From positions 64,001 to 128,000 of the IMG/VR virus record IMGVR_UViG_3300028805_000055: a DNA stretch of 64,000 nt; one strand, 5' to 3'. Below, in pieces: positions 439 to 43,375 of the stretch; the stretch's first letter is position 1; each line of letters starts with the position of its first letter. The DNA is from a virus (Duplodnaviria > Caudoviricetes). The translations under genes were made by a program, and so were the position numbers. The notes below the pieces were generated by a model. The model saw only the letters and a program-made list of their open reading frames with translations, had not been told where the DNA came from and did not search any database.

Positions 439-502
439 AAAAAAGCCAACCTATCTTCTCAGACTGGATGGCTTAGATGAATATGAATACATAATTTAAA
501 AC
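439..502 (-). terminator. intrinsic terminator preceded by a U-rich CAU tract (sRNA candidate)
   Basis: AAGCCATCCAGTCT-GAGA-AGATAGGTTGGCTT followed by a T run. Confidence 0.65.
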
Positions 503-778
503 CTAATTCTCTTCTACGTCGAAATGGAATAAGTAGTGCAAACCATTGCTCGTCTTAGTCCACGTGACAATACCATCCAGTGTGCCGTTACTGAATGTTA
601 AGGATAATCGGTCATGAGTGTCGTCGATACGACTCATCTTAATATCCTGTGGATTCTCTGAGAATACATCGTGCTCAGCGATTCTGTCGCTCAGTATCTT
701 AACAACCTTTTCAGTGTCCTTGTTGAGGAACACGCAGTTGTCGAATCCGTTCTTGATAGCTTTTGCTCTCTGTGCCAT
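503..778 (-). CDS. hypothetical protein
   Basis: 91-aa ORF below promoter 802-835. Confidence 0.75.
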   Translation of the reverse strand: MAQRAKAIKNGFDNCVFLNKDTEKVVKILSDRIAEHDVFSENPQDIKMSRIDDTHDRLSLTFSNGTLDGIVTWTKTSNGLHYLFHFDVEEN

Positions 779-801
779 GTTGTTATAAATATTAATTCTT
801 G

Positions 802-835
802 TGCAAAGATATAAATTTTTTCTGTAAAAAACAAA
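802..835 (-). promoter_or_regulatory. Bacteroidota sigma promoter
   Basis: TTTG...TATCTTTGCA. Confidence 0.8.
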
Positions 836-1073
836 TTTTTAGCGATGTTTTTTTGCTTTCTGCCATCCTTTTAGCTTGCGATGCTTCGGATGGTACTCAA
901 CGCTGCCGAATGGGTCAACCAGAACTGGCATATACATGGCTGGGTCTGGTTTCATATAAAATTGCATTACCATAACTATTCCTCCACCTTTTTGAGTTTT
1001 TCCTTAATCTCTGGGTCGGTCACTATATCGTAGACCAGAATACCCAGAGAAACTATTAGAAATATCCAGAACA

Positions 1074-1550
1074 TTATCCAAGGGGCTTAAAGTAATCAAC
1101 ACTCTCTTCCACGACGTTCACAAAGAAATGCTCGTAGAACTCTTGATACTCTTTACATCTGGTGATATACAACAGGACGTAGGGAATAAGAATATCCAGA
1201 GAGTTTAACAGCAGTTCTGAGATATTAATAATCTCTTTCATACCGCAGTTTTTTTCACCATCAAACGTGAAACGACCATTGGGGAACTTGTTGGGGTTGT
1301 TCACGACGAACGCCACACCATGAGCATCCATCATACCATGAGAGATAAGGTGATTCATGTCAGTGTTGTTGTAGATGTCAAAGATGTAGTCAACGCCACC
1401 ACGCTCATCATCCTGCATCCTGTTGTACGCTGCCAGAACAATACCCATGCTCTTTTTGTAGTTCTCTCGGAACTCTTTCTTTACCTGTTCGGTAATGAAC
1501 TCCTCAATCAGTTTGAGGCTCTTACCTAATGTTTGATTAATCTTCTCCAT
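1074..1550 (-). CDS. hypothetical protein
   Basis: 158-aa ORF with an AT-rich leader. Confidence 0.8.
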   Translation of the reverse strand: MEKINQTLGKSLKLIEEFITEQVKKEFRENYKKSMGIVLAAYNRMQDDERGGVDYIFDIYNNTDMNHLISHGMMDAHGVAFVVNNPNKFPNGRFTFDGEKNCGMKEIINISELLLNSLDILIPYVLLYITRCKEYQEFYEHFFVNVVEESVDYFKPLG

Positions 1551-1724
1551 AACCTTATACTATTAATTGTTTAACGTACTGGTGAATAATACACCTTGCT
1601 CTGTCGCTCAATCAGACTGGTGTAGTCTGGCACTGGCGTTGCCAGAAACCATGATGTAACCAGAGAGGTGTTAGTTCTGTTTTTCTTATCTTTCTTACCC
1701 ATAGTTGTATTATTTTAATTCTGG

Positions 1725-1758
1725 TGCAAAATTAGATAAAAAAAATGAGACTACCAAA
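1725..1758 (-). promoter_or_regulatory. Bacteroidota sigma promoter fused to a terminator hairpin
   Basis: ATGAGGCTAC-ATTTG-GTAGTCTCAT then T8 then TAATTTTGCA. Confidence 0.85.
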
Positions 1759-1782
1759 TGTAGCCTCATCTTTTAACACTTT

Positions 1783-2004
1783 TTAGATAAAATCCTTAAA
1801 CTCAATCTCTAATGGGTCTGGGTCTCCCTCTGGGAAATATTGTGTGTCTGTAATCCAGTCCCACGAATAATCACCCTCAAAGGTGTAATTATCGTCGATA
1901 TACGCCTGTTCGTCACCACCATACTTCTCCTGTAGTTCCCGTTCGTTAATGTCCTCAACCATCAATTCATGGCTAAAATGGTCAATGATAGCTATTCTTC
2001 TCAT
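1783..2004 (-). CDS. hypothetical acidic protein
   Basis: 73-aa ORF, tightly packed. Confidence 0.75.
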   Translation of the reverse strand: MRRIAIIDHFSHELMVEDINERELQEKYGGDEQAYIDDNYTFEGDYSWDWITDTQYFPEGDPDPLEIEFKDFI

Positions 2005-2008
2005 ATTC

Positions 2009-2431
2009 TTATCTATCTAAAAGTTCCCACTTAATTCCTCTACTCTTGGCAGTATAGTGATTATCTGGCTCTGTGCCATCCTCGAAATCACCAGTGTTGT
2101 ACCATTCATCCAGAGAGACCAGATTACCGTCGAGGTCTACGCTCACTTCATACACATGACCATGATGTGTAAACGACGTTGAGAAGATTGTGTCCTTGAA
2201 ACACTCACCCTCTGGCTCACCTGTGTAGCTGTGTCTGTCGATGGTGAACGTCACCTTATCACCGTCGATGGTCTTAAACACTATTATGATGCCATGCTTG
2301 GGCGATACAAGCCCTGTGTAGCGTTCGTTAATGATGGTCTGGGTAGTTGTACTCCTAACCTCATAATTGCCGTAGAAAGGGTTGTTTTTGACCTTTCTGA
2401 TGCACTCAATTTTCAATTCTCCTATTACCAT
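2009..2431 (-). CDS. hypothetical protein
   Basis: 140-aa ORF, tightly packed. Confidence 0.75.
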   Translation of the reverse strand: MVIGELKIECIRKVKNNPFYGNYEVRSTTTQTIINERYTGLVSPKHGIIIVFKTIDGDKVTFTIDRHSYTGEPEGECFKDTIFSTSFTHHGHVYEVSVDLDGNLVSLDEWYNTGDFEDGTEPDNHYTAKSRGIKWELLDR

Positions 2432-2444
2432 AATACCTGTTAGT

Positions 2445-2909
2445 TTAAATTAAGTTCTGAATAATATCCATAGCAGTGCTAATTTCTTCCATAGCAGGCT
2501 CATTACCCTCTGCATAGTTGTAAGCCAGTTGCAGGTTATTGTAGGCTGTTTCCAGATAACTCTTAGCATTTTCGCTAAGTTCACCATTCTGCATTGGAAC
2601 ACGCTGTACGCTAACCTCACCTATTGGCTGAGGAAACTCACCTAAGTGGTCTGTAAGAGTTAACACATCTAAATCGTTCAGTTGTGCCTCTGCAAGAAAC
2701 TCTGCATACTCTGTTCTGCCCTCTTGGTTGGCATCGTCAATCCAGATGTCAATGGTGTCAGCATCGGCTCTTTCAAGGGTATAGTTCCCATCGACAAACT
2801 TGTCTCGCCTAACCATGTTTACAACCATTTCGTGCTGCTCTTGTGACAACTCGAAAGTTTTGATAACGTAACCGCATCCTGCGGTCTGTAAAAGTCCTAA
2901 ATTCTCCAT
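2445..2909 (-). CDS. hypothetical protein
   Basis: start moved to MENLGLL, downstream of promoter 2938-2971. Confidence 0.75.
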   Translation of the reverse strand: MENLGLLQTAGCGYVIKTFELSQEQHEMVVNMVRRDKFVDGNYTLERADADTIDIWIDDANQEGRTEYAEFLAEAQLNDLDVLTLTDHLGEFPQPIGEVSVQRVPMQNGELSENAKSYLETAYNNLQLAYNYAEGNEPAMEEISTAMDIIQNLI

Positions 2910-2937
2910 ATCTCTTATATTTAATGTTGTTTGACGC

Positions 2938-2971
2938 TGCAAAATTAGGTAAAATAATCGAAACTACCAAA
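2938..2971 (-). promoter_or_regulatory. Bacteroidota sigma promoter
   Basis: TTTGG...TAATTTTGCA. Confidence 0.8.
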
Positions 2972-2992
2972 TTTTTTATGTTAAAACTTCTA

Positions 2993-3027
2993 AAAACAAG
3001 GGGAGCACCCCAATCTGGAGTGCTCCC
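2993..3027 (-). terminator. intrinsic terminator
   Basis: GGGAGCACTCCA-GAT-TGGGGTGCTCCC then CTTGTTTTT. Confidence 0.75.
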
Positions 3028-3079
3028 ATCAACCTAACAATCATTATGGAAAACAAACAGCGTTATCACAACGCAACGA

Positions 3080-3153
3080 TGGTGTATCCAGAGGGACTTG
3101 AACCCCCGACCCCCACATCAAATGTGGTGCTCTACCAACTGAGCTATAGACAC
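3080..3153 (-). tRNA. tRNA-Ala-like gene with a 5-nt anticodon loop (74 nt, encoded CCA)
   Basis: GTGTCTA/TGGATAC acceptor with G3:U70, A73-CCA, canonical D and T arms, anticodon arm CCACA-TTTGA-TGTGG. Confidence 0.8.
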
Positions 3154-3159
3154 TTAAAA

Positions 3160-3940
3160 AAATGAGCGGGGTGGGACACCAACACCTTGATGGCAAAGGC
3201 GAGTGCGTTAAGCAGCGCAGTTCGGCATCTGTGTGGGTCTCTCCCACCTCACTCTCTAATGGGGCATGGCAAGCGCATAATATACTCGGCTAAATTGGCT
3301 CGCTCGCCTAACATCGCCCCTCTCTGTTGAAAAATGGGCATCCTATAACTAACATCCGCATTGCTTGGCAGTAGAATTGTGCGCACGTTACCCCTTATGC
3401 GGTATTGTCTCAACTTCGGTATGCCCTAATCTCCCTTGGCAGTGGTTTAATAGCCAATACGGATGCGTCCAAATGCGGCTCTCTTATGGCTCTCTTGTAG
3501 CGGCGGTGGGCGCAATGTGCCTCGGAAATGGCGGCTCTCTGGATATTAGTCGCTCATTGACACTTACGGCTCGCGGGACTATCTCATGTGTCCCAAACTC
3601 ACTTGCCCTTTGGCATTAAAGTTTACTCATGTGGCGGCATTGTAACGTTACACGAACTTTACCCTATCTCCACCTTGTTGGGGTTTTTTATTTTATTAAA
3701 ATCGTCTATCATCTAAGTATCATTCCTTAGTTGGGTCGGTCTCTAATCATACTCTATGATGTGGGGATTTTTCCATGCACCCCTTTACATTTTTAAATTC
3801 ATGCTCGATTATATAATACTCCGAAATTATCTAACTATGTACAAGCCCTTTAGGGCGGGGGTCGTTCATTACTATTCATCACTGCATACTTTTAATATTA
3901 ATACTACTTGGTCTGGGGGACTGGCGTCAGCCCGTGCGTG
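3160..3940 (-). ncRNA. candidate large structured ncRNA (~780 nt)
   Basis: no credible ORF; nested long helices (3164-3176/3242-3254, 3261-3275/3301-3320, 3336-3343/3418-3426); lies between a promoter-driven small ORF and a tRNA-like gene. Confidence 0.6.
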
Positions 3941-3942
3941 AC

Positions 3943-4065
3943 CTAACGCATTGGACGGATTTTGTAGAGCTGTGTCTTAGTACCGTCCCCGTTTTCTCTT
4001 ACTTTGCTTGGCATCGCCACGACTCTGATGTTAGCAATGGAGCGTAGAAATCTCTTTTTACTCAT
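3943..4065 (-). CDS. small basic protein (40 aa, MSKKRFLRSIAN...)
   Basis: ORF directly below promoter 4087-4120; too short for the ORF track. Confidence 0.55.
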   Translation of the reverse strand: MSKKRFLRSIANIRVVAMPSKVRENGDGTKTQLYKIRPMR

Positions 4066-4086
4066 AACTCATATCTGTTTTAGTAG

Positions 4087-4120
4087 TGCAAAGATATAAG
4101 TTTTTTTTGAGAAATCCAAA
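4087..4120 (-). promoter_or_regulatory. Bacteroidota sigma promoter
   Basis: TTTGG...TATCTTTGCA. Confidence 0.8.
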
Positions 4121-4144
4121 TTTCACGTCACATTTTTGTCATCT

Positions 4145-4363
4145 TTAACAATATTCTGCTTGGTAATCCAGAAACTCCTGCGCATCCAATGTATCACGGA
4201 TTTCTTCTTCTAACTGGTCGTCATTGATGTTACCATCTTCATCTTCGAAGCGTGATAGGGATAATCCCTGCAACTCCACGACGAAATTACCGTCAGCATC
4301 ATGTATGTCAATACCGCTCAATGTATCGGTGGCTACATAGCCTGTTTCACTCTTATACTCCAT
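4145..4363 (-). CDS. hypothetical acidic protein
   Basis: 72-aa ORF. Confidence 0.75.
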   Translation of the reverse strand: MEYKSETGYVATDTLSGIDIHDADGNFVVELQGLSLSRFEDEDGNINDDQLEEEIRDTLDAQEFLDYQAEYC

Positions 4364-4385
4364 GATTAAATCTCCTTTTAAAAGT

Positions 4386-4489
4386 GGGCTGTGGGTGGCA
4401 GGACAATCTGCCGCTTGGTGGGTAGGGGGGTAGTATCGGTTAGGGGGTTTCCCGACCCACTTGCTCCGCTGTCCGTCGCACCCAAGCCC
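4386..4489 (-). ncRNA. GC-rich intergenic rod-like hairpin RNA candidate
   Basis: nested pairs GGGCT/AGCCC, TGGGTG/CACCCA, GGACA/TGTCC, GTGGGT/ACCCAC with a C/A-rich apical loop. Confidence 0.5.
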
Positions 4490-4514
4490 TGTTGATTATG
4501 ACTAAGAAAAGAAA

Positions 4515-4871
4515 CTAAAGAGAGTTATCAATGTTCTCGTGAATGAATGCAGCCACGTCGTAGACTTCATCCCAATTGATGTTTTCTAAGGGATATTCGC
4601 TGCAATCTTCAACCTGTAAGGCAATATCACCGTCCTTGTCGAGAAACACGCCCTCAACCATTGAGAATGCGTTACTGGCGTACTCTGGGTGATTACCTCC
4701 ATCGTAGGTGACTGAAACCATGTTGTCAACTTCTGTAAAGTCGATGCTGCCACCATGTGCTTCCAGAACCTTTTTGATGTATGTCTCGCACTTCTGGCGT
4801 ACCTTTCTCTGTGCTGGCAGGATGGTGTCATATAGAGCATCAGCCTGCTTGAAATACGTTGCCCTTTTCAT
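4515..4871 (-). CDS. hypothetical protein
   Basis: 118-aa ORF. Confidence 0.8.
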   Translation of the reverse strand: MKRATYFKQADALYDTILPAQRKVRQKCETYIKKVLEAHGGSIDFTEVDNMVSVTYDGGNHPEYASNAFSMVEGVFLDKDGDIALQVEDCSEYPLENINWDEVYDVAAFIHENIDNSL

Positions 4872-4874
4872 GCC

Positions 4875-5405
4875 TTAATACTTTTTAAATCCAGACTTAG
4901 ACCAGCCGATTTCCTTGTGCAGCCAACCACCACGAGCCTCGTCAAAAAGATAGATGTGCTGGCAGTCGATACGATTGTAAACGTCTTTCTGGGTCTTACC
5001 TTGAATGGGCTTAATGTTATTCCAACGTTCGTACACCCACTTCTGGTCTTCTCTGCCTCTGTTGGCATAGTGGCGAACTATATCATCGTCTATGACGCTG
5101 CAAAAGCCACCTACAACCAGATTTCGTGCAGTCTCGTAATCGTTGAACTTCGCTTTGAGAGAATCACCTACACCACCATTAATGTAACCATCGTTGTGGC
5201 AGTAGATACCGATATATACCTCTTTCAGTTCCACTGGTTCACTGCGCTCTTCTCCCCCTTCATCCCGCCAGACCTTACCATCAAGGTCTTTGTAGAGCCA
5301 ATTGTCTAACTTCACTCCATTTGGCAGTTTGTTGGTATCGAACTTGAACGTTTTACCGATGTCCTCTGGACGAACCTTAATAATTACACAACTTCTTGTA
5401 GCCAT
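4875..5405 (-). CDS. conserved phage early protein (MATRS...IYCHxDGY family)
   Basis: IYCHNDGYINGGVG motif; start corrected to MATRS, downstream of the promoter. Confidence 0.75.
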   Translation of the reverse strand: MATRSCVIIKVRPEDIGKTFKFDTNKLPNGVKLDNWLYKDLDGKVWRDEGGEERSEPVELKEVYIGIYCHNDGYINGGVGDSLKAKFNDYETARNLVVGGFCSVIDDDIVRHYANRGREDQKWVYERWNNIKPIQGKTQKDVYNRIDCQHIYLFDEARGGWLHKEIGWSKSGFKKY

Positions 5406-5578: not shown

Positions 5579-5672
5579 AAAAAGAGGGAGGCACAGCATC
5601 CTGTACCTCCCAAATACAACCAATAATTAACCAATAACTAAAACAACAAAAAACCTATGAACAAAACTAAAA
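5579..5672 (-). terminator. intrinsic terminator preceded by a U-rich CAU tract (sRNA candidate)
   Basis: GGGAGGTACAG-GATG-CTGTGCCTCCC then TCTTTTT. Confidence 0.65.
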
Positions 5673-5843
5673 TCACTCCTGTCTTAATATCTGGCTCTCC
5701 CTCTCACCACAGATGGTAAACTCCTTAATGTCTGCTTCCTCTGCCAAGTTACGGGCATTATCCAGAGCCTCGCCCTCATCGTTACCAGTTACATCTACGA
5801 TGATGGAGGCGTTATAATTCAATTGAATAGTATATTTCCTCAT
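5673..5843 (-). CDS. small hypothetical protein (56 aa)
   Basis: MRKYTIQLNYNAS... read by eye; fills the gap between gene and terminator. Confidence 0.65.
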   Translation of the reverse strand: MRKYTIQLNYNASIIVDVTGNDEGEALDNARNLAEEADIKEFTICGERESQILRQE

Positions 5844-6230: not shown

Positions 6231-6264
6231 TGCAAAGATATAAAAAAAAAATTAGAATCACAAG
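6231..6264 (-). promoter_or_regulatory. Bacteroidota sigma promoter fused to a terminator hairpin
   Basis: CTTG...TATCTTTGCA; inverted repeat ATTAGAATCAC/GTGACTCTAAT. Confidence 0.8.
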
Positions 6265-6302
6265 TTTTCGTGACTCTAATTTCTTAAAAAAGCTTAATAT
6301 GG

Positions 6303-6689: not shown

Positions 6690-6695
6690 ACTCTA

Positions 6696-8258: not shown

Positions 8259-8294
8259 AATCTAAATGTTTAAGTTGTTATTAATGTTTGACGG

Positions 8295-8328
8295 TGCAAA
8301 ATTAGACAAAAAAATCGAAACTACCAAA
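8295..8328 (-). promoter_or_regulatory. Bacteroidota sigma promoter (identical to 10117-10150)
   Basis: plus-strand tgcaaaattagacaaaaaaatcgaaactaccaaa. Confidence 0.85.
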
Positions 8329-8436
8329 TTTTTTTGGAAAAATCTTATTGTCCTATATAAACTTTTCTGGTTTCTTTACAAAAGATAATAAAAACAGGGT
8401 GAAGCCAAATTGATATCACCCTGTATCTTTATGAAA

Positions 8437-8510
8437 AAGGGGTGTGGCTATGGAAAGCCAGCGCCAGCTAAAATAGGAATCGAACCTATACATACACCTT
8501 TGCACCCCTT
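8437..8510 (-). ncRNA. small structured element containing a tRNA T-arm
   Basis: closing AAGGGGTG/CACCCCTT, ATAGG-TTCGATT-CCTAT, TGGCT/AGCCA; followed by terminator 8391-8424. Confidence 0.45.
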
Positions 8511-8514
8511 ATAC

Positions 8515-8904
8515 CTATTCCTGTGGATTAAACTCTACCTGTGCCATCTGTGTACCACAATCATCCCTACCACAGCAGATATTGTAACCAGACAATAGGT
8601 TTTCGTCGTAGGTGGTAAGAATCATATCATCATCAATTCTTTCACCGCAATTGGGACAGGCGATAACAAAGTCCCCATAGTTATCAAGTGGGAAATACTT
8701 AACGCCCATCCCAGATAGTTCTAAAATCGCCTGTGAGCTGCAAATAACGTCGTAGATGGCTAGTATACCATTCTTACCGTCGAATGAGTTCTGGAGGCGT
8801 AAAACGCCCAATCTGATAAGTATATTAATGAAATTGCTAATAGGCTTCTCATACCAGTCAGTGACGTAGATGCGAATCTTATATTTCTTCTTATTCTTTG
8901 CCAT
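8515..8904 (-). CDS. zinc-ribbon protein
   Basis: CPNCG...CCGRDDCG. Confidence 0.65.
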   Translation of the reverse strand: MAKNKKKYKIRIYVTDWYEKPISNFINILIRLGVLRLQNSFDGKNGILAIYDVICSSQAILELSGMGVKYFPLDNYGDFVIACPNCGERIDDDMILTTYDENLLSGYNICCGRDDCGTQMAQVEFNPQE

Positions 8905-8970
8905 AGAGCGTTTATTTTATGTTAGTGGATAAGAGGAAGCCCCACTATCTGTGAGGCTTCCAGAGAGGGT

Positions 8971-10065
8971 TTATGCAACCGACAGAAGCATTTCCTGTGC
9001 TTTCTGGATTTTGTTGTAGGCGTTACCACCCATGAGGCTATCGAACTTGATTTCCTCATTCGAGAAATTAGCCTCGTTCTGGAAATAGGTGGTGAGACCG
9101 TTGATGAACCACATACCTGTGCCTGCCTCTTGAATGTCCTGCCCGATGCCAGACTCCATAGCGTTCTTCACGTTGAGGAACAGGTTACGTCCACGAGTCT
9201 TGATGCCCTCAGACTCAATATCGCCTGTCTCATGGAACACCTTTGCAGCCTCTGGAGAGAGAAGCACATCAGCCAAGATGTTATCCAACTCCTTTTCAGA
9301 GAGGCGAATGTTACGCAGATGCTCAAACTGCTCTTTCAGACCAGATGCGTACACCTCGTAGAGATTGAGGGTCTTGTATGCGAACTCCGCATTTTCCTCC
9401 TGCAACAAGTCGAGGCGAGACATCACGTTACGACTGTGACGGAAAGAGATACGCCCGATATTGTTGTGCATAGCGAGATTGAGAGTGTTGTTGCACACCA
9501 CACGAATCGGGGTGATAACACATCGTACAGAACCTGTACCGTCATGAGAGGTGGTGAAGCAGGCGTACATATCTACCAAATCATCACGTCTGGCATCTAA
9601 GACTATCTGCTTTGGGAACTTAGCGGTAACGAACACACGCTCACCACGACCTAAGACACCAGCGGTTTCGATAACAGGTGTATTGTCCCTGTCTGTGTTC
9701 TTACCAGAGACCAACAGGTCTACGAACTTGAAAGCATCGCTATTCTGGACAATGCCGTAGGAATCAGATACCACGCCCAGAGACTGATTGAGGTCAGTGC
9801 GTACCGTAGCCATAGTGTTGGGGATAACCAGAGAGAGCAATGTATCAGCATCAATGCCACCATTCAAAATCTTGTCTTGCACCTCTGGGGTCAGAACCAT
9901 GACGGGCTGCATCATCACGTTATAGTCTGCATGAGAGAGTTTTAACGCCTCATCAACGTGCATTGCGCCATCTACCTGCTGTCCGAGGCTGTGCCATGCC
10001 AGACCGCTTTTCTTGTTCTCTACAAAGGAGTAAACTCCGTTTCTGTTTTCAATATTTGCTGCCAT
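8971..10065 (-). CDS. DUF932/DUF945 family phage/plasmid protein
   Basis: AWHSLG, YGIVQNSDAF, ETAGVLGRGERVF, TSHDGTGS, TPIRVVCNNTL motifs. Confidence 0.9.
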   Translation of the reverse strand: MAANIENRNGVYSFVENKKSGLAWHSLGQQVDGAMHVDEALKLSHADYNVMMQPVMVLTPEVQDKILNGGIDADTLLSLVIPNTMATVRTDLNQSLGVVSDSYGIVQNSDAFKFVDLLVSGKNTDRDNTPVIETAGVLGRGERVFVTAKFPKQIVLDARRDDLVDMYACFTTSHDGTGSVRCVITPIRVVCNNTLNLAMHNNIGRISFRHSRNVMSRLDLLQEENAEFAYKTLNLYEVYASGLKEQFEHLRNIRLSEKELDNILADVLLSPEAAKVFHETGDIESEGIKTRGRNLFLNVKNAMESGIGQDIQEAGTGMWFINGLTTYFQNEANFSNEEIKFDSLMGGNAYNKIQKAQEMLLSVA

Positions 10066-10116
10066 AATCTTAATGTTTTTGTTAGGCTACCGCAGGACTA
10101 TCCTTTGGTTTCACGC

Positions 10117-10150
10117 TGCAAAATTAGACAAAAAAATCGAAACTACCAAA
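10117..10150 (-). promoter_or_regulatory. Bacteroidota sigma promoter
   Basis: TTTGG...TAATTTTGCA. Confidence 0.85.
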
Positions 10151-10201
10151 TATTTTCGTAAAAACTTATAGGACAATATAAAGATTTAACGTTTGTTCAC
10201 A

Positions 10202-10271
10202 CAAATGGGGCACATTTTCACAAATGCACCCCATCCAAAAAACAAATCATTTAATATGGAAACAAAAACAT
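10202..10271 (-). terminator. hairpin with GTGA loop preceded by a U-rich CAU tract (sRNA candidate)
   Basis: TGGGGTGCATTT-GTGA-AAATGTGCCCCA. Confidence 0.6.
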
Positions 10272-10496
10272 CTAAGTCAAAAATACATAGTCTGATGGGT
10301 CACTGGTAGAGCAGTTACACATCTGATTATAGCAAATGAAGCCTATTAACTCTGAGCCATCCTGCAAACCGTTCCATGCTTGGTGATACTCATTGCCCTC
10401 GTCATCAGATGACATGATAATCTTTTTCTTACCTAATCCTGCTGCACTCATTTTGAGACACATTGCAGCTAATTGGTCAATCGTAATTCCTTCCAT
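10272..10496 (-). CDS. hypothetical protein
   Basis: 74-aa ORF with SSDDEGNEYH motif. Confidence 0.75.
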   Translation of the reverse strand: MEGITIDQLAAMCLKMSAAGLGKKKIIMSSDDEGNEYHQAWNGLQDGSELIGFICYNQMCNCSTSDPSDYVFLT

Positions 10497-11819: not shown

Positions 11820-12050
11820 ATGATAATACCTATTAGAGATTTGAAAGTAATGGTTCTGTCTTTCCCTGTTGATGATTATCGCAGGAGAGAGCTAATAAAC
11901 AAGACGGATGAGGAGTTAATTGAAATTGCCACCAAGAGTCCCAAGTGTAAGGTCTGGGAAGACTTGGAGGTATTTCAGAATTGCCTCAACAATGAACTCG
12001 TAGACACGGAGAACAACTGGATATTCTTTGCCAGTCAACAGGTTAAGTAA
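11820..12050 (+). CDS. hypothetical protein
   Basis: start corrected to MIIPIRD, downstream of the promoter. Confidence 0.7.
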   Translation: MIIPIRDLKVMVLSFPVDDYRRRELINKTDEELIEIATKSPKCKVWEDLEVFQNCLNNELVDTENNWIFFASQQVK

Positions 12051-12103
12051 GAGCCTTCTGGAGCTTGTGGATAACCTCCAGCATATCTTTGGATACAGTT
12101 TAA

Positions 12104-12142
12104 AGGCGTGTGGGATAGACGATGCAACTATCTCATGCGCCT
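12104..12142 (+). terminator. GC-rich hairpin
   Basis: AGGCGTGTGGGATAG/CTATCTCATGCGCCT. Confidence 0.5.
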
Positions 12143-12312
12143 CACTGTGCGCCTAAGGTAGACATGTGATTAATAATAACCCAAGTGTACTTTTTTAAGT
12201 ACTATAAAGCAATATAAACTATGGATGTTATAACGGTATTAAAATGTATAGGTCTCGCCATACTGATTGTTGCAGTATACAACATGTGGCGTAATAGAGG
12301 AGGAGGGCGTAC

Positions 12313-12558
12313 ATGGGCACAGTAACGTTAGCTCTCGTGTGCGTCGTCATCGCCCTGCTACTGTCCGTCGCCTTGGTCTTCATGGAGCTGAAGCGAAAAA
12401 AAGATACCAAGCTCAATAGGATGTGGGCTAGACTCAATGGCGTTGACCCAGATGACACAGAGAAATGGTGGTTCCAGGAGTGGTGCAACCTATACAGGAG
12501 CTATTTGCCACGACCAGGACTGCTCCAACGACTGTGGAGACTCCTGGGAGTCGAGTGA
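12313..12558 (+). CDS. small membrane protein
   Basis: N-terminal TM helix followed by a basic patch. Confidence 0.6.
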   Translation: MGTVTLALVCVVIALLLSVALVFMELKRKKDTKLNRMWARLNGVDPDDTEKWWFQEWCNLYRSYLPRPGLLQRLWRLLGVE

Positions 12559-12610
12559 AAATGCTATAGCACCCAGTGTACTTTTTTAAGTCTAATCGAT
12601 ATCAAACCAT

Positions 12611-12829
12611 ATGATTGCATTATTACTAGCACAGAAGATTGTAGAAGCTGCCAGGGAGTCTGGCACAGTAACTGAAGAGGAGCTGGATGCTGCCGCATTC
12701 AAGATGGTCGCATACCTGCTTATAGCTCTAGTGGTGTTCTTCCTGGTGATGGTCTTCACCGACCCACAGTTCTGCTTCAGACACGACATCCAGGAATTCA
12801 TAAAGACTGTTAAAAATTTGGTATTCTGA
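12611..12829 (+). CDS. small membrane protein
   Basis: TM helix VAYLLIALVVFFLVMVF. Confidence 0.65.
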   Translation: MIALLLAQKIVEAARESGTVTEEELDAAAFKMVAYLLIALVVFFLVMVFTDPQFCFRHDIQEFIKTVKNLVF

Positions 12830-12850
12830 AAAAAAATGTATATCTTTGCA
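12817..12850 (+). promoter_or_regulatory. Bacteroidota sigma promoter
   Basis: TTTGG...TATCTTTGCA. Confidence 0.8.
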
Positions 12851-12888
12851 CTGTTTAGTATTAATCAACTAGTAAAGTAAAATAGAAT

Positions 12889-13113
12889 ATGCCAAGAATT
12901 ATCATTAAACAGCCTGGTAAACCCGACATGTGGGTCAAGAACATTGACAAACTCACGGGTGAGGTGACATTTACCACCAACAGGAACGAAGCCTATGTGA
13001 GGGATGGAGGCTTCTACTGTAATTCAGAAGTGAAGACCCTCAAGAATCCTATGATGTACGACCACGAGAAGTATCCAGAGCTATTGTATGCTCAGACAGA
13101 TGGTAGTTATTAA
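12889..13113 (+). CDS. hypothetical protein (paralogue of the next two ORFs)
   Basis: shared D-x-x-TGEV-x-x-T-x-x-x-x-x-A pattern. Confidence 0.75.
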   Translation: MPRIIIKQPGKPDMWVKNIDKLTGEVTFTTNRNEAYVRDGGFYCNSEVKTLKNPMMYDHEKYPELLYAQTDGSY

Positions 13114-13173
13114 TCCAGGGCTATAATAGTCCTGGTTGTACTTATTTAAGTCTAACTGTAAAAGTATTATAGT

Positions 13174-13371
13174 ATGGCAGTAATTTTAAAGCATAGGGAT
13201 GAGAACAAGTTCCTGGAGTCCTACGACGGTGTAACAGGTGAGGTCAAGCTCACAGACAAGATGGGCAACGCAAAGTGCTATAGCAACGACTGGTTCGCCA
13301 AGGCTGAGCTGGAACACCTTCAGTTCCACTTCCCAGAAGAAACTAAGGAATTGATAGTATACTTCACATGA
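13174..13371 (+). CDS. hypothetical protein
   Basis: DGVTGEVKLT, similar to 12889..13113. Confidence 0.75.
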   Translation: MAVILKHRDENKFLESYDGVTGEVKLTDKMGNAKCYSNDWFAKAELEHLQFHFPEETKELIVYFT

Positions 13372-13580
13372 AGAAGGTCATCTTAGAGTTTACCCTCAAC
13401 GGGCATAAACACACCTACTATAGGCGTACAGATATCTATGGTAGTCCTGTGACGACCACCAACGTCAACAGTGCTCGTAAGCTGAAGGAAAGTGAAGTCC
13501 CTGGTATAGTGAAGCTCCTCATCAAGGAGTACGGTAAAGACAATGTAATAGACATTAAACCCATAAGTGGTGACGACTAG
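13368..13580 (+). CDS. hypothetical protein
   Basis: ATGA overlap with the previous ORF; weak similarity to it. Confidence 0.7.
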   Translation: MKKVILEFTLNGHKHTYYRRTDIYGSPVTTTNVNSARKLKESEVPGIVKLLIKEYGKDNVIDIKPISGDD

Positions 13581-13692
13581 TAATCGTCACCATTTTTTTT
13601 ATATCCATACACAATCTCATACATATAAAAAAAAAATGGGACTCGAATTAACGAATCCCAACTGGTATAGTATCCATTGTACTTTTTTAAGT

Positions 13693-14229
13693 CTAACCTA
13701 TCCACTCTTCTGGATTGCCATGATAGTTATACATCGGTGGCACTCTGCTTGCGCTGGGTGGGTATGTGCATGCTACTGGATAAGGAAGCCTCAGCTGTCC
13801 ATCCTTCTCTGGTAATGGAGGTAAGTCATGCACCGACACTCCAGGAGCATCCTCCCTTACCAACGCCTCCAACAATCCAGGACGTGTGCCTCTAATCAAT
13901 AGCTCACTCTTGCCCTTCTTACACGTTACATACGCATGGTCAAGATTTCTAATCATGTCCCTCTGGAATGGAGGCATAAAGATATTACACCTCTTCATGT
14001 AGTCATCAAATGCTGTCACACTATAGAACATAATTGGTGCTCTGTTCATGTCACTCCACTCGTAGAAGTAGATAATACCATTGTACGTGCCATAATCCGA
14101 CTTAGTACCAATACCTCCACACCTAAACCCACAATAACTAGGAGGAGTATAAGAATGCTCTTCCTCTTCCTTCCTAATCAAGTAGAGTCTAAATAATGCC
14201 CACAGTTTCTCCTTACTAATATTTCCCAT
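13693..14229 (-). CDS. hypothetical protein (IYFY...F-x-S...FD-x-Y family)
   Basis: domain shared with the next two ORFs. Confidence 0.75.
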   Translation of the reverse strand: MGNISKEKLWALFRLYLIRKEEEEHSYTPPSYCGFRCGGIGTKSDYGTYNGIIYFYEWSDMNRAPIMFYSVTAFDDYMKRCNIFMPPFQRDMIRNLDHAYVTCKKGKSELLIRGTRPGLLEALVREDAPGVSVHDLPPLPEKDGQLRLPYPVACTYPPSASRVPPMYNYHGNPEEWIG

Positions 14230-20561: not shown

Positions 20562-20595
20562 TGCAAAGATAACTAAAAAATCTGAGATAACCAAA
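20562..20595 (-). promoter_or_regulatory. Bacteroidota sigma promoter
   Basis: TTTGG...TATCTTTGCA; drives the MCW cluster. Confidence 0.8.
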
Positions 20596-20621
20596 TTATT
20601 TAATTATCTTTAACTCTTTTT

Positions 20622-26438: not shown

Positions 26439-26472
26439 TGCAAAGATAAATAAAAAATTTGAGATATCCAAA
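26439..26472 (-). promoter_or_regulatory. Bacteroidota sigma promoter fused to a terminator hairpin
   Basis: inverted repeat AAAATTTGAGATAT/ATACCTCAAATTTT. Confidence 0.8.
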
Positions 26473-26503
26473 GAATACCTCAAATTTTAACAAATATTAG
26501 TAA

Positions 26504-31274: not shown

Positions 31275-31308
31275 TGCAAAGTTATACAAAAAAAATGGGA
31301 TAACCAAA
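31275..31308 (-). promoter_or_regulatory. Bacteroidota sigma promoter fused to a terminator hairpin
   Basis: inverted repeat ATGGGATAA/TTATCCCAT; -7 box TAACTTTG. Confidence 0.8.
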
Positions 31309-31510
31309 TATTATCCCATCTTTTAAGATTTATTAACTACTGACCCTTGATTATGGGTCGTACTATTGGCTGATTCTTTTTCTTATTGCCGTGCTTCTTT
31401 TCAAACCACTTTGCTACCTTCATCATCGTCTCGTAGGTGGTGTATACAGTTCCTGCTACCGCAACAACCGTATTGATTTTCTTAATGAGTCCTAGCATAC
31501 TGATTATTGT

Positions 31511-38426: not shown

Positions 38427-38718
38427 TTCCGTTGTAGATTAAAGCAAAATAGAGATAGTGTCCTAGGTCTAGTGAGAGAAAAAACACAATGGTAATCGGC
38501 CATACCATGCCGAAAAACGTTCCTATCTCCCTACTATACAATTTTATCAGTCTCGTATTCATGTCCAGGGTAATATCGTCCAACTCGTCAGATGTGGAAG
38601 TTGGTGGTGAGTATTGTTCAAGCTCACTGTTAGCTTTCATACCTATTAAGATTCCTACTGCAATATACAGGAGGAAGAACACGAAACACATGCCAGTGTT
38701 GTAAAATTCTGCATTCAT
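38392..38718 (-). CDS. membrane protein
   Basis: two hydrophobic helices. Confidence 0.65.
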   Translation of the reverse strand: MNAEFYNTGMCFVFFLLYIAVGILIGMKANSELEQYSPPTSTSDELDDITLDMNTRLIKLYSREIGTFFGMVWPITIVFFLSLDLGHYLYFALIYNGNEEDRIASWLV

Positions 38719-38732
38719 TGATATTAATTTTC

Positions 38733-38766
38733 TGCAAAGATATAAAAAATATTCGAGAAAACCAAA
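38733..38766 (-). promoter_or_regulatory. Bacteroidota sigma promoter
   Basis: TTTGG...TATCTTTGCA; heads the nadD-PARG-M42-YqeY gene run. Confidence 0.8.
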
Positions 38767-38780
38767 CTTTTTAATGTTTT

Positions 38781-39134
38781 TTAAACGAAATCGTTGTCAT
38801 CATCCATGATAACTGAATGAATCTTGCTGTCCACGACTCTATCCAAGCTACCCTTAAGCGACTCCTCCAGATATGACCCAATGACAGCTTCCACGTCAAC
38901 GGTGTTACGGTAAGGACCTATCCAGATTCCCTTACCCCATTCCTTATGTCTGACGTAGTATCTGCCATTCTTAGCAATTTTGAACATAAACTCCGACCTG
39001 CTCAATGGTCTCCTGTACCAGGGTATTTGAGCAGGAGCAGCACCAACCTTGGGAGTCTTTATCTCAAGGCTGGTGGGCTTCCTTCTGTTCTTTATGAACT
39101 GAATAAGCGGAGCTTTATCCTCTATCTCACTCAT
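38781..39134 (-). CDS. hypothetical protein
   Basis: 117-aa ORF. Confidence 0.7.
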   Translation of the reverse strand: MSEIEDKAPLIQFIKNRRKPTSLEIKTPKVGAAPAQIPWYRRPLSRSEFMFKIAKNGRYYVRHKEWGKGIWIGPYRNTVDVEAVIGSYLEESLKGSLDRVVDSKIHSVIMDDDNDFV

Positions 39135-39136
39135 GA

Positions 39137-39490
39137 TTAGTTCTCGTTAGATTCCAGAGTCTTGGCGAGTTTGTCGGCAAACTCTTCAAGGATAACTGGG
39201 TAGTAAGTGTTGTACCAATACTTGATGGTAGGAAGGGTGTAGTCCTTCTGCATCTGACGGAAGATGGACTTAGCCTCCATAATCATAATCTTCTGGATGT
39301 AGGTCTCTGGAATCTTACCATCACACCACTCCACTGCAAGCTTGTTAAACCTGCTAACATAGCCAAGATACTCGGCAAAGATAATGAAAATAGGAGCTTC
39401 AATGACATTTTCCTTGTCACTTTCCTCAGCAAGTTCAGCGAAGTTGCCTTTCCACTGCTGGGTCTCTTTTACAGTCTCAGTATTCTCCAT
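39137..39490 (-). CDS. hypothetical protein
   Basis: 117-aa ORF. Confidence 0.75.
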   Translation of the reverse strand: MENTETVKETQQWKGNFAELAEESDKENVIEAPIFIIFAEYLGYVSRFNKLAVEWCDGKIPETYIQKIMIMEAKSIFRQMQKDYTLPTIKYWYNTYYPVILEEFADKLAKTLESNEN

Positions 39491-39650
39491 TTGAATTCAA
39501 TATTTAAAAAGTTAATAATCTTAGAAATACAACTCTGGAATAACCTCACAGTCGTAAGCAGCCATTTTCTCAACCTCTTCATCAGAGAGTTCTGCTGCCT
39601 TTAACAGTTCCTCTTCTTCCAAATCTACTATTGTAGATGCAGTAAAAAAA

Positions 39651-40037
39651 TCATTTTTCATTCTTGTTTATTTTATCAATTGTTACTTTAAAATTCTTTC
39701 TGCACCTCTTCACTATTTTCTTGTACTCTGGGTCTGGTGTAGTAATCCTGATGACGTGGGTAGTACGAGTATTGGAATGGTATTGCCTCTGACCACTATC
39801 GTAATACTCATAGTTGTAATATCCCTCATCCTCTGGGAAGAACCATGAATGGCTGTTAGGATTGATGTTATTCCTTCTCATATATTCCTTGTCGTCTTCG
39901 TCAAAGAACGAGAAGATAGCCCATACAAACATGGCTATTGGGAATAGCACATATTTGTAGTCATCCAATGTCATCATGGTAATGAATCCCATGATTGACA
40001 TGAATATCATCATAGCCCTAAAAAACAGATACGTCAT
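39651..40037 (-). CDS. membrane protein
   Basis: two N-terminal TM helices. Confidence 0.7.
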   Translation of the reverse strand: MTYLFFRAMMIFMSIMGFITMMTLDDYKYVLFPIAMFVWAIFSFFDEDDKEYMRRNNINPNSHSWFFPEDEGYYNYEYYDSGQRQYHSNTRTTHVIRITTPDPEYKKIVKRCRKNFKVTIDKINKNEK

Positions 40038-40055
40038 CTTTTATATCCAAAGTAA

Positions 40056-40313
40056 TTAGAATTTCTTCTTCTTAATCAAAAACCTTGCGAATACACTTGT
40101 CCTGTGCATCTTACCCTCGGTTTCGTCGCCACCGTCAACACGCTTATAGATACCCTCGTTCTCTCCCTTTGACAGGAAGACAATCTCTCTTCTCTCCAAT
40201 GAGATAATTGGTGGGATGTGATAAACTGTGTTCACCTCAACCTGGTCCCAAGGCGTAATGCTCTTAATCTTCTGGAGCTGTTCCTTAAGCTCCTGTACTG
40301 AACGTTTTGCCAT
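40056..40313 (-). CDS. hypothetical protein, paralogue of the C-terminal domain of the next ORF
   Basis: W...Y-x-IP-x-II...ARF-x-x-x-x-x-KF. Confidence 0.75.
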   Translation of the reverse strand: MAKRSVQELKEQLQKIKSITPWDQVEVNTVYHIPPIISLERREIVFLSKGENEGIYKRVDGGDETEGKMHRTSVFARFLIKKKKF

Positions 40314-40322
40314 ATTGTCTAA

Positions 40323-40976
40323 TTAAAATTTATGATATTCTACAATGAATCTAGCGTCTAAATCTTGACGGTATACGTTATGATAGTAAGATGTCTCCTT
40401 AAGGTCTTTGTCCAAGGTAACACATCTGAGAGTGTATTCGGTCTTTGCTACAGCCAGTACCACCTTTCCATTCTGTCGGATAATGGTTGGAATGACATAA
40501 ATCTTTCCTTCCTGTATATCTTCCCACTGTACATGGATTGGGAGAGCTTCGTATTTCTTACGCTTCTCCTGGTAAATCTCGTAAGCAGTCTTCTCTTCTG
40601 ACTGGTGGGTTATATTACTCACGTGAGTAACGACATTTGGTACACGAGACGTAGGACTATCCAAGAGCTTAGGACACCAATCTGGGACAGGAATATCCAC
40701 AGGGTCTTCCAGTCTAAATGATATAGTCCTGGGTCTTGTAGTACCTTCACTCTGTATAAGATGCTTACCACAGCAGGCGTTATACTTTTTATCACCATGG
40801 TCCTTGTAATTCTTTATAAGATAACCACAGTAATTACAATTGCCATCCACCGTCACTGGTGTTTCATCTTTCTTAGGGGGTTCATACACAGGAATTGGTT
40901 CATCGAACTTGCACACTGTGCATTCTCGACAATCCCTTCCATCGCATGGATGATTCAATACATGTGCCATTGCCAT
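40323..40976 (-). CDS. Cys-rich metal-binding protein
   Basis: CDGRDCRECTVC, CNYC, CC, WCP. Confidence 0.75.
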   Translation of the reverse strand: MAMAHVLNHPCDGRDCRECTVCKFDEPIPVYEPPKKDETPVTVDGNCNYCGYLIKNYKDHGDKKYNACCGKHLIQSEGTTRPRTISFRLEDPVDIPVPDWCPKLLDSPTSRVPNVVTHVSNITHQSEEKTAYEIYQEKRKKYEALPIHVQWEDIQEGKIYVIPTIIRQNGKVVLAVAKTEYTLRCVTLDKDLKETSYYHNVYRQDLDARFIVEYHKF

Positions 40977-40988
40977 ATACTATTACAA

Positions 40989-41720
40989 TTAGAATCCAGG
41001 GGCTTCATCAACAGCCTCTTCATCAGCCCACTCTTCGTCTCTGTCCTCGTCGTAGTCTTCGTCGTAGTAAGCGTCCTCATCATCGTAGTACTCGTCCTCC
41101 ATGTCTTCCATGAATCCGTCACCGTACATACCATGATTCTCTTCCATCATACGATTAATCTGCTCTGCCATGTTTGGAGGAAGCTCTGGCAGCTTACCAG
41201 CCTTGATAAGCTCGTGAATCTGCTTCATCTTCTCCATTTCCTCTGGTCTTGGCTGAGTCATGTCAACGAAGCCTACACCGAAGATTTCCTCACAAGTGCT
41301 GTTGAATATCTCACCACCAATCTCAGACAGGAAAGCGAAATCGTTGTTGTATCGCTCCACAAACACATGAATGAGCATATTGGTGCAATTGGCAATGTGA
41401 CGCTGAAGCATACCGTCCTGGTTGTTTTGGAAGTCAGAGCCGCACTTACCACCAAAGGTCTTCACCATAATACGCAGGAAGCTACCGATGTTCTCAGCCT
41501 TAACAAAAGCATTCTCCTTGGAACGATTCTGGATGACAGGTTGAAAACAATGCATCTTCTTGTACATGGTAGATACACAGTTGTTGGTCTCGATACCAAC
41601 GGTACTCCTAAACTTCGAATACATACCATGTCTCTTAATGGCAGCAATGAAGTTCTTCAAGACTAGGAACTCAACGTAGTAGTTCTTGTCTGGACAATTT
41701 TCAATATTCAAATCTTTCAT
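40989..41720 (-). CDS. hypothetical protein with acidic tail
   Basis: 243-aa ORF below a promoter. Confidence 0.8.
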   Translation of the reverse strand: MKDLNIENCPDKNYYVEFLVLKNFIAAIKRHGMYSKFRSTVGIETNNCVSTMYKKMHCFQPVIQNRSKENAFVKAENIGSFLRIMVKTFGGKCGSDFQNNQDGMLQRHIANCTNMLIHVFVERYNNDFAFLSEIGGEIFNSTCEEIFGVGFVDMTQPRPEEMEKMKQIHELIKAGKLPELPPNMAEQINRMMEENHGMYGDGFMEDMEDEYYDDEDAYYDEDYDEDRDEEWADEEAVDEAPGF

Positions 41721-41740
41721 TTGCTATTTTATAAAGTTGG

Positions 41741-41774
41741 TGCAAAGATATTGATTTTTTTGGGGAAAACAAAA
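41741..41774 (-). promoter_or_regulatory. Bacteroidota sigma promoter
   Basis: TTTTG...TATCTTTGCA. Confidence 0.75.
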
Positions 41775-41793
41775 TTTCTGCACTTAAAAAAAG

Positions 41794-41976
41794 TTAATTG
41801 TCTCCTTGAATGTGTAAATTATGACAGTTAGGACAATAGAATCCCTGTTTCCAACCTGTTTCCTGGCTGGTAATACCGAATGCCCTCCAAGGAAGGAACT
41901 CGTGTCCGCAGTGGCTGCATACTACCAAGAACTTCCTGTGAGCAGCCTTCTCCATGTCCATTTCAGCTTCTGTCAT
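41794..41976 (-). CDS. zinc-ribbon protein
   Basis: CSHC...CPNC. Confidence 0.7.
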   Translation of the reverse strand: MTEAEMDMEKAAHRKFLVVCSHCGHEFLPWRAFGITSQETGWKQGFYCPNCHNLHIQGDN

Positions 41977-41978
41977 TC

Positions 41979-42653
41979 TTATAACTCTATGTCAATATAG
42001 CATGGTGGGTACACCAGCTTATAGTTCTCATTCACTACCGATACATTCCTAATCTCGGTCTCTCCACGCTTTTCCATTTCGTGGTTGCACGAATGAAGGT
42101 GTCCACAGAAGTGATACCTCGGCATCTTATTATCCACAGCGTCACCAAGGGGGTGACAACCTATGTGGTCTCCTGTCTTCCAAGGACAATCCTCTTGCAG
42201 CAGCACATCATTGTTACCATAAGGACAATCATGTGTAAGCAGGATGTCAACCTTATATGGAATCTTATTGTATATCTTGGCAAGCTGAACGTCGGATGTC
42301 ATAAATGCCCAGTTGTAGAACTGGTGACACCAGGGAGTGCCATAGATTCTGAAGCCCTCATACTCAGCCTCTTTATCACAGAGATATGTAATTTTGGTGT
42401 TCTCAAACATTGCTTCCCAGTCGTCTGGATGCTCCATAGCAATCCAATCATGGTTTCCAGCAATGAGGAAAACCTGCTTACAAGGCTGTTTCTCACACCA
42501 GGGTACAAACTCCTTGGCAAGCCACTTCAAAGTCCCCTGGTGATATGTCTGTACCCTCAGCGGGACAATATCGCCACATATGCACAGAATGTCGCACGGC
42601 TCTATGTCAAAATTAAGGATACCGTGCATATCCGATATAGCACAAACTTTCAT
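41979..42653 (-). CDS. calcineurin-like metallophosphoesterase
   Basis: SDMHG, CGD, AGNHD, LTH, CGHLH all intact. Confidence 0.9.
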   Translation of the reverse strand: MKVCAISDMHGILNFDIEPCDILCICGDIVPLRVQTYHQGTLKWLAKEFVPWCEKQPCKQVFLIAGNHDWIAMEHPDDWEAMFENTKITYLCDKEAEYEGFRIYGTPWCHQFYNWAFMTSDVQLAKIYNKIPYKVDILLTHDCPYGNNDVLLQEDCPWKTGDHIGCHPLGDAVDNKMPRYHFCGHLHSCNHEMEKRGETEIRNVSVVNENYKLVYPPCYIDIEL

Positions 42654-42654
42654 A

Positions 42655-43029
42655 TTATTTTAATCTTATTGAATCACAATGATATTTGTCAGATAGATAC
42701 TTGTTCCACCCAGTTTCAAGATATTTTCTCCAGTAGTCAGAACCCTTCTTACTTTCAGACCAGTCGAATGAGCCACTGAATGAAATAAAGAGCTGTCTTA
42801 AAGACCTGTTATACGCATATGCTACGTAAGAATATCCCTTTATATTGGCTACAATTATGGCTTTGGCATTATCTCTTCCGAAAGGCTCTGAAACACCAGG
42901 AAGATTACCCCTCACCTTGTGATAATCATAGCTGGCTATGACAAACTCACCTAGAATGCGATTTCTCTTGAGGAAATCACATACCAGATGCGTGGCATCT
43001 TCATTACTTACTGTTACCTTATCTACCAT
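42655..43029 (-). CDS. hypothetical protein
   Basis: FDWS-x-S-x-x-G-x-DYW motif. Confidence 0.7.
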   Translation of the reverse strand: MVDKVTVSNEDATHLVCDFLKRNRILGEFVIASYDYHKVRGNLPGVSEPFGRDNAKAIIVANIKGYSYVAYAYNRSLRQLFISFSGSFDWSESKKGSDYWRKYLETGWNKYLSDKYHCDSIRLK

Positions 43030-43042
43030 TTCTGCAATTTTT

Positions 43043-43077
43043 TGGCAAAGATATAAAAAAAATTCGAGAATTCCAAA
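43043..43077 (-). promoter_or_regulatory. Bacteroidota sigma promoter fused to a terminator hairpin
   Basis: perfect inverted repeat AAAATTCGAGAAT/ATTCTCGAATTTT with the -33 box in the loop. Confidence 0.85.
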
Positions 43078-43218
43078 TATATTCTCGAATTTTAATATTT
43101 TTTAAATTAAAACGTCATCGTCTCCTTTACATTTTGTCCATGCCCAGGCAAACAGGCAGGAAAAGGCAAATACTATTACCAACTGAATTAATTTCTCCTC
43201 CATAACACTATCTATTTG

Positions 43219-43301
43219 AGACACGGGTGAGATTCGAACTCACGTACCTTTCGGTCAAAGCTTTTGCAGAGCCAGGCGATTGACCACTCCGCCACCGTGT
43301 C
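43219..43301 (-). tRNA. tRNA-Cys(GCA) with a long variable arm
   Basis: acceptor GACACGG/CCGTGTC, U73, loop CT GCA AA, variable arm ACC-GAAA-GGT, T-arm GTGAG-TTCGAAT-CTCAC. Confidence 0.85.
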
Positions 43302-43305
43302 TTGT

Positions 43306-43375
43306 AAGTCCCGACACGTATTTCACAATAGACATCGGGACAATTAAAAGTAATAAAGATGAAAATTAAAAATGT
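43306..43375 (-). ncRNA. U-rich CAU tract plus hairpin with GTGA loop (sRNA candidate)
   Basis: TTTTCATCTTTATTACTTTTAATT then GTCCCGATG...TTGTGAAA...TGTCGGGAC. Confidence 0.45.

Follow-up and report, generated by a model that had tools for sequence, protein, structure and literature searches.

FopS-like, promoter-less elements at gene and tRNA 3' ends in a giant rumen phage

The small RNA family FopS has 14 copies in Bacteroides thetaiotaomicron, RNAs of 65–70 nt in which a single-stranded 5' seed is followed by a terminator; 13 have a sigma-ABfr promoter of their own and the remaining one, FopS-14, is derived from a 3' untranslated region (UTR) (Ruttiger et al. 2025, PMC11697453). By pairing with susC mRNAs close to the start codon, FopS blocks translation, an effect demonstrated experimentally for FopS-10 on a susC mRNA and counteracted by RbpB (PMC11697453). 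One sentence of the same paper reports a FopS sequence in a Caudovirales phage whose predicted host is Bacteroides, and sees in it a vehicle for the spreading of small RNAs (PMC11697453); the searchable literature mentions phage FopS nowhere else. Here, we analyzed five elements (E1–E5) on the minus strand of a 64,000-nt stretch of phage DNA (the window; bases 64001–128000 of the 153,679-bp IMG/VR virus record IMGVR_UViG_3300028805_000055, CheckV completeness 52%), which had been predicted from the sequence alone to resemble FopS. The prediction proved right in kind; the clade of this phage carries FopS-derived, promoter-less 3'-end elements. All positions are given in window coordinates, those below 1 or above 64,000 lying elsewhere in the record.

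The host family was surveyed with an 18-mer from the conserved FopS 5' region, obtained via the Northern probe in the supplement of PMC11697453. A GTDB scan with this query returned at least 120 Bacteroidales loci, and those listed all show a TAnnTTTG box followed within a few nucleotides by GTGTTTTTCAT(A/G)GTATTAGATTTAAGGTTAAC, a GNRA-loop hairpin and a T-run. The 5' start of FopS reads GUGUUUUUCAUAGUAUUAGAUU, and its U-rich CAUA seed begins GUGUUUUUCAUA. FopS is entered in Rfam 15 as RF04319 (gathering score 56 bits); positive controls from B. thetaiotaomicron, B. faecis and Segatella copri scored 70–78 bits. Together, the GTDB loci and these controls establish that FopS does start with a U-rich stretch and CAUA, so that the anti-start seed assumed in the original prediction was right. 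The accompanying view of a mainly 3'-derived family was wrong, this origin applying to 1 of the 14 B. thetaiotaomicron copies (PMC11697453). The seed 18-mer occurs far beyond Bacteroidaceae, in Prevotellaceae, Muribaculaceae, Paludibacteraceae, Dysgonomonadaceae and Tannerellaceae, and GibS (RF04182) has the R1 seed in common with FopS.

Among phages, the number of IMG/VR contigs with the FopS 22-mer is at least 114. A host-type promoter precedes 52 of the 109 copies that were readable and is missing from the other 57, so that at least 57 promoter-less copies exist in IMG/VR; 54 of these have sufficient flanking sequence for placement. All but two of these (52/54) start 1–18 nt after the stop codon of an open reading frame (ORF) of at least 127 codons, in 15 distinct contexts, and two other copies follow tRNAs. 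Every placed promoter-less copy continues into a GNRA-loop hairpin, and the upstream ORFs match PHROG families. The promoter-less seeds look like a distinct phage-type branch of the FopS family. In contrast to the phage FopS of PMC11697453, viewed as a spreading vehicle, the phage sequences described here form a class of their own that lacks promoters and sits after stop codons, and a single jumbo phage carries several diverged copies.

The clearest FopS-like element of this phage lies 7.7 kb past the window, at 71739–71826 on the minus strand. It carries GTGTTTTTCATAGTATTAGATT, the exact FopS 5' end (22/22 nt), directly after two tRNAs; a promoter box is absent, and the 3' end is formed by a terminator hairpin and a run of 8 T. 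This copy scored 34.4 bits with the full RF04319 model (expectation value [E] 0.1; below the 56-bit threshold) and 27.9 bits with a covariance model of our own, R1 (E 0.004), and was matched by nhmmer with E 6e-4. Within the window, E1 was matched at 435–506 (nhmmer E 3.7e-4) by a phage-type FopS profile built from 26 phage-type copies with E1 left out. Relatives of the phage were located via flanking proteins, one with ~90% DNA identity (G001) and three with ~70–75% (G002, G003 and G004). At the position of E1, the latter three have seed-bearing elements scoring 48.3 (G003), 24.3 (G002) and 20.6 bits (G004). In an alignment of this region (A6), these elements share both neighbors with E1, the gene upstream and tRNA-Leu downstream, and are therefore its positional counterparts; TCAT is among only 14 invariant columns. 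The conserved 5' seed, GUGUUUUUCAU(A/G)GUAUUAGAUUUAAGGUUAAC, is present in the three counterparts and (22/22 nt) in the 71739–71826 copy, and is absent as such from E1–E5, which keep UUYCAUA and fragments. E1 and its G001 copy retain TGTAYTCATA and the hairpin core GTCTGAGAAGATA, the remainder of the seed being gone. On the strength of profile and synteny, E1 is assigned as a decayed phage-type FopS-like element. For E4, common descent is indicated only indirectly, through its counterpart in G003, the hairpin of which (GGCTGTCTGGGAAGATAGCC) is identical over 20/20 nt to that of true FopS genes.

All five elements are located where they had been predicted and were confirmed from the sequence in the form originally described, each comprising a U-rich spacer with CAU and a GC hairpin directly after a stop codon or a tRNA (Table 1). 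Folding yielded strong hairpins (z-scores between −2.7 and −3.8), the spacers remaining unpaired for the most part, which is the layout of FopS. The GC-rich stem-loop and U-tract of an intrinsic terminator were detected for E1–E3 in a terminator scan and for E4 in its relatives, where a U-tract that is weak in this phage is clear; E5 lacks this second part of an intrinsic terminator. Given the missing U-tract and a distance of 6 nt to tRNA-Cys, the hairpin of E5 would more likely serve to protect a 3' end, one left behind by RNase P cleavage at this adjacent tRNA. The description of GTGA or GAGA loops in four of the five hairpins holds only loosely, as it applies to E1, E4 and E5, the loop of E3 being GAUG and E2 having GUGAU only in a small extra hairpin. 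In the tRNA that precedes E2, called as Gln(TTG), the anticodon loop measures 5 nt, and the G001 copy is two bases longer there (TTTGATA).

Table 1. Position and composition of the five 3'-end elements in window coordinates
Element	Position	Strand	Upstream neighbor	Spacer	Hairpin and 3' end	Downstream neighbor
E1	437..502	-	TAG stop of ORF 503..778	two CAU (485-483, 479-477)	GAGA-loop hairpin 443-474; U-tract 437-442	tRNA-Leu 326..418
E2	2993..3079	-	tRNA-like gene 3080..3153, of which E2 is the trailer	UUUUCCAUAAU box, CAU 3048-3046; small extra hairpin 3060-3074 (GCGUU-GUGAU-AACGC)	terminator hairpin 3001-3027, then U-tract	
E3	5579..5672	-	TGA stop 5673-5675	61 nt, U-rich, sole C within UUCAUAG; CAU 5659-5657	hairpin 5586-5611 (GAUG loop), then U-tract	
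E4	10196..10271	-	TAG stop 10272-10274	AUGUUUUUGUUUCCAUA box, CAU 10258-10256	GUGA-loop hairpin 10203-10236; weak U-tract	
E5	43302..43375	-	TAA stop of ORF 43376..43957	UUUUCAUC, CAU 43361-43359	GUGA-loop hairpin 43308-43341; no U-tract	tRNA-Cys 43218..43301

None of E1–E5 reached the RF04319 gathering threshold of 56 bits, and in the most permissive run of this model (a 505-nt search) E3 was the only one of the five to match (18 bits, E 3). Rfam searches of the window, at the gathering threshold and at E ≤ 10, returned tRNAs and chance matches only. The best of E2–E5 with the covariance model R1 was E2 (10.9 bits, E 3.1; not significant), nhmmer with a FopS 5' profile matched none of E1–E5 at E up to 50, and E5 matched no FopS model. 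The FopS probe, which is located 3' to the CAUA portion of the seed, had no copy in the record outside coding DNA at up to five mismatches. Smith-Waterman similarity to the FopS 5' region, compared with shuffles, gave P values of 0.20, 0.047, 0.13, 0.48 and 0.037 for E1 to E5, respectively. No sigma-ABfr promoter of their own was found for E1–E5, which start directly after stops or tRNAs; TAnnTTTG-like strings before E3 and E4 are not retained in relatives, and host FopS copies all have the TAnnTTTG box. Alignment to the FopS family, proposed as a check along with the original prediction, thus singled out E1 (by its profile match) and the 71739–71826 copy, no model being significant for E2–E5. 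On the whole, the FopS interpretation is partly supported; for E2–E5, which may be FopS-like, it rests on their common design and a conserved CAUA core.

This core is apparent in the related phages, where CATA is retained at E1, E2, E3 and E4 and the hairpin stems vary with compensating changes. E2 is identical in G001. E3 keeps TTCATAG in G001, G002 and G003, again with compensated variation of the stems, and E4 keeps TTTCCATA or TTTCATA in G003 and G002. No relatives of the gene that precedes E5 were found in IMG/VR.

The record belongs to a giant rumen phage with start sites and promoters of Bacteroidota type. It had no match among INPHARED phage genomes by megablast or blastn, and the metatranscriptome runs that contain the phage sequence are from sheep and bovine gut. 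Gene starts lack a Shine-Dalgarno sequence and are A-rich at −12 to −14; position −3 is A, 57% of genes have T at −1 and 91% have a purine at +4. Promoter-like TTTG...TAnnTTTG boxes lie upstream of genes; this start context and these boxes fit with a Bacteroidota host. The spacer motif UUYCAUA (TTYCATA in DNA) is the exact complement of the start context uAUGraa of the phage. A hairpin scan of the whole record revealed four further elements of the same design, at −1629..−1599, −9359..−9328, −12181..−12150 and 71751..71777. In a set of 10 T-rich stop-to-hairpin spacers from the whole record, half of which had been chosen for having CAT so that motif statistics are partly post hoc, CAT occurs in 9 spacers as compared to 4.4 expected from composition (P about 0.0014), and CATA is the top 4-mer, occurring in 8 as compared to 1.37 expected, a count reached by 0 of 2000 shuffles. 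Outside the originally selected elements, CATA occurs in four of five spacers; CAT is missing from the T-rich spacer at 1008. Intergenic DNA of the minus strand as a whole is poor in CAT (0.8x), and only 8.6% of its C residues precede AT. The pattern of the five elements exceeds chance and is non-random.

We hold with moderate confidence that E1–E5 are diverged, partly decayed phage FopS-like 3'-end modules that may give rise to anti-start small RNAs. The modules would constitute the 3' ends of an early-gene array and, with the exception of E5, its intrinsic terminators, each hairpin being preceded by a single-stranded U-rich stretch with a UUYCAUA box. They would belong to a phage FopS-like lineage that has no promoter of its own and is housed in mRNA 3' ends or tRNA trailers. 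We infer that termination and processing would release RNAs of 60–90 nt, the unpaired 5' part of which may pair with uAUGraa start regions and block initiation, as FopS-10 does on susC; any targets, and any activity of E2–E5, are putative. Metatranscriptome contigs span E1, E3 and E4; contigs cannot show RNA ends, strand or level, and size selection in such libraries would lose RNAs of 60–90 nt.

Pairing was assessed as duplex energies between the E1–E5 spacers and 222 phage start regions, with shuffled controls. The best phage start for E2 was that of the DUF932 gene (−24.0 kcal/mol, P about 0.05), and its best phage targets are all leaders of early genes (−24.0, −20.4 and −20.3 kcal/mol); the reverse complement of E2 resembles the common early-gene leader ...TAACAA...TCATTATGG. 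Genes neighboring the elements were not preferred, the immediately downstream gene ranking between 17 and 215 of the 222. Over these regions, start-codon complementarity was not clearly above shuffled U-rich controls, a comparison set out with the original prediction.

Several of these observations weigh against anti-start modules. E1 has lost most of the FopS seed that its counterparts keep, and E2–E5 are below all model thresholds, without significance against RF04319, the covariance model R1 or either nhmmer profile and with marginal 5' similarity in the shuffle test. The E3 module is missing from G004, in which the stop codon adjoins the next promoter. Pairing to phage start regions is about equal to that of shuffles, E1, E4 and E5 being no better and E2 and E3 only marginally so, and the motif enrichment has the post hoc component noted above. 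The loss of seed in E1, the sub-threshold scores of E2–E5, the lack of E3 in G004 and the pairing results, along with the gain and loss of cassettes observed in the region, favor a reading in which the elements are plain terminators or 3' stabilizers, the CAUA stretch being a decaying relic of a FopS-like insertion or of copied regulatory cassettes with no role in pairing. Such a relic is possible, though in our judgment the less likely of the two. CATA is retained at every counterpart examined, though stems and other spacer sequence vary, and is the most enriched 4-mer; moreover, a spacer of 23–80 nt is unneeded for termination, 21 of 44 terminator-like hairpins lying <20 nt from a stop codon.

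An extension of the anti-start reading, which we regard as speculative and rather doubtful, is that Bacteroidales phages captured the FopS seed from the host and relocated it to 3' ends within the phage genome, those of genes and of tRNA transcripts, and that this jumbo phage diversified it into retargeted anti-start RNAs, which would silence host mRNAs (e.g., those of SusC-type transporters, possible receptors) or its own early genes.

Alternatively, the elements may act in cis as insulators, the CAUA stretch of a read-through RNA pairing, within that RNA, with the AUG and A-rich leader of a phage gene, such that the gene is translated only from the transcript of its own promoter. The likeness of the E2 reverse complement to early-gene leaders and the choice of such leaders as its best targets are consistent with this, as are the RNA-library contigs across E1, E3 and E4, though contigs do not prove read-through. 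Three points make it improbable: the directly downstream gene is never the best target, E1, E4 and E5 have no excess complementarity, and no covariation of box and leader was seen in relatives. Finally, we consider it very improbable that the CAU is the complement of start codons of small plus-strand genes, or marks plus-strand promoters, since, although the plus strand does read as an A-rich stretch followed by TATGRAA and a 97-aa ORF (43359..43652, plus strand, antisense to ORF 43376..43957) begins at the complement of the E5 CAU, the other frames are 3–38 codons long, one runs antisense through a tRNA, the frames are not retained in relatives (the E3 counterpart in G002 has 3 codons), and there is no conserved TAnnTTTG box.

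These small ORFs, and promoters on either strand within the spacers, were rejected. Mimicry of the tRNA-Met anticodon loop (CUCAUAA) was rejected because a flanking stem is absent, and CATAA or CATAG as in-frame back-up stop codons had no consistent frame.

Compared to FopS itself, the phage elements have the same succession of a U-rich single-stranded 5' part with CAUA and a GNRA-loop terminator hairpin, 65–90 nt in all, and are tied to it by the synteny and profile match of E1, the FopS hairpin of the E4 counterpart and the one copy in the record with the exact first 22 nt. They differ in lacking a sigma-ABfr promoter and residing in 3' UTRs or tRNA trailers, a setting to which only FopS-14 among the 14 host copies is similar, in seeds that are reduced to UUYCAUA within the window, and in scores that all fall under the gathering threshold.

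The proposed arrangement is also reminiscent of CpxQ, SroC and 3'ETS-leuZ of Proteobacteria, Hfq- and RNase E-dependent RNAs experimentally shown to derive from 3' UTRs or a tRNA spacer. As in these systems, a terminator would be common to the regulatory RNA and the mRNA or tRNA transcript, E2 being a tRNA trailer, and freeing by processing would apply. Unlike in these systems, processing of the phage elements is presumed, and the phylum of the presumed host is not known to have Hfq.

T4-type phages reportedly contain promoter/stem-loop (PeSL) cassettes, each a promoter with a stem-loop, which are said to have been described by Arbiol and colleagues in 2010. Like these, E1–E5 are repeated intergenic regulatory modules between early genes, and their presence varies among relatives. 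PeSLs carry no anti-start seed, and a closer analogue in this phage than E1–E5 is a second class of hairpins on the minus strand (1740–1774, 6246–6285, 20567–20609, 26454–26488, 31287–31327 and 43059–43093). Each opens with an A-run, has TTTGG in the loop of its stem and closes with a T-run after the return stem, and a TAnnTTTG-like box comes immediately afterwards, so that the −33 TTTG of the promoter lies in the loop of a two-way terminator. These hairpins are repeated terminator-promoter cassettes between early genes. One RNA-library contig (run X1) joins 8294 to 10117, omitting 1822 nt that include the DUF932 gene, with 35 nt fitting both sides; this joint looks like a deletion variant from recombination between repeated promoter cassettes.

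The minus strand carries nearly all genes. Products encoded in the window include NAPRTase, a CCA-adding enzyme, an M42 peptidase and a DUF932 protein. A perfect 16-nt palindrome (TGTTTCACGTGAAACA) separates the terminator of E1 from tRNA-Leu at 424–439, which we take to be the parS consensus and which has one change in G001. The stretch 3160–3940, between a 40-aa ORF and the tRNA-like gene, is ORF-free and GC-richer. For metatranscriptome contigs over 3201–4000, word depth is 1696 and 540 in run X1, and 733 and 281 in run X2, as compared to about 2–15 for flanking genes, depth being a rough guide that may include other organisms; these deep contigs represent a close variant that differs by several substitutions and by indels of 1 nt. 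The stretch had no Rfam match at E ≤ 10, and folding z-scores of 3154–3720 were not significant on either strand. Several intergenic stretches, at 12050–13700 and about −12110, share the motif ACTTAAAAAAGTACA and the palindrome GTACTTTTAAAAGTAC, and the same motif occurs in G002 and a further phage, G005.

FopS is the central small-RNA family controlling polysaccharide uptake in gut Bacteroides. In this context, the five copies in the window matter mainly as evidence of diversification or decay of the element, and, since many phage contigs have the 22-nt seed in exact form, the idea of phage-borne FopS is directly testable in B. thetaiotaomicron, for which reporters exist. If the idea is true, promoter-less copies carried on phage transcripts could reprogram the nutrient uptake or surface receptors of the host without further transcriptional cost.

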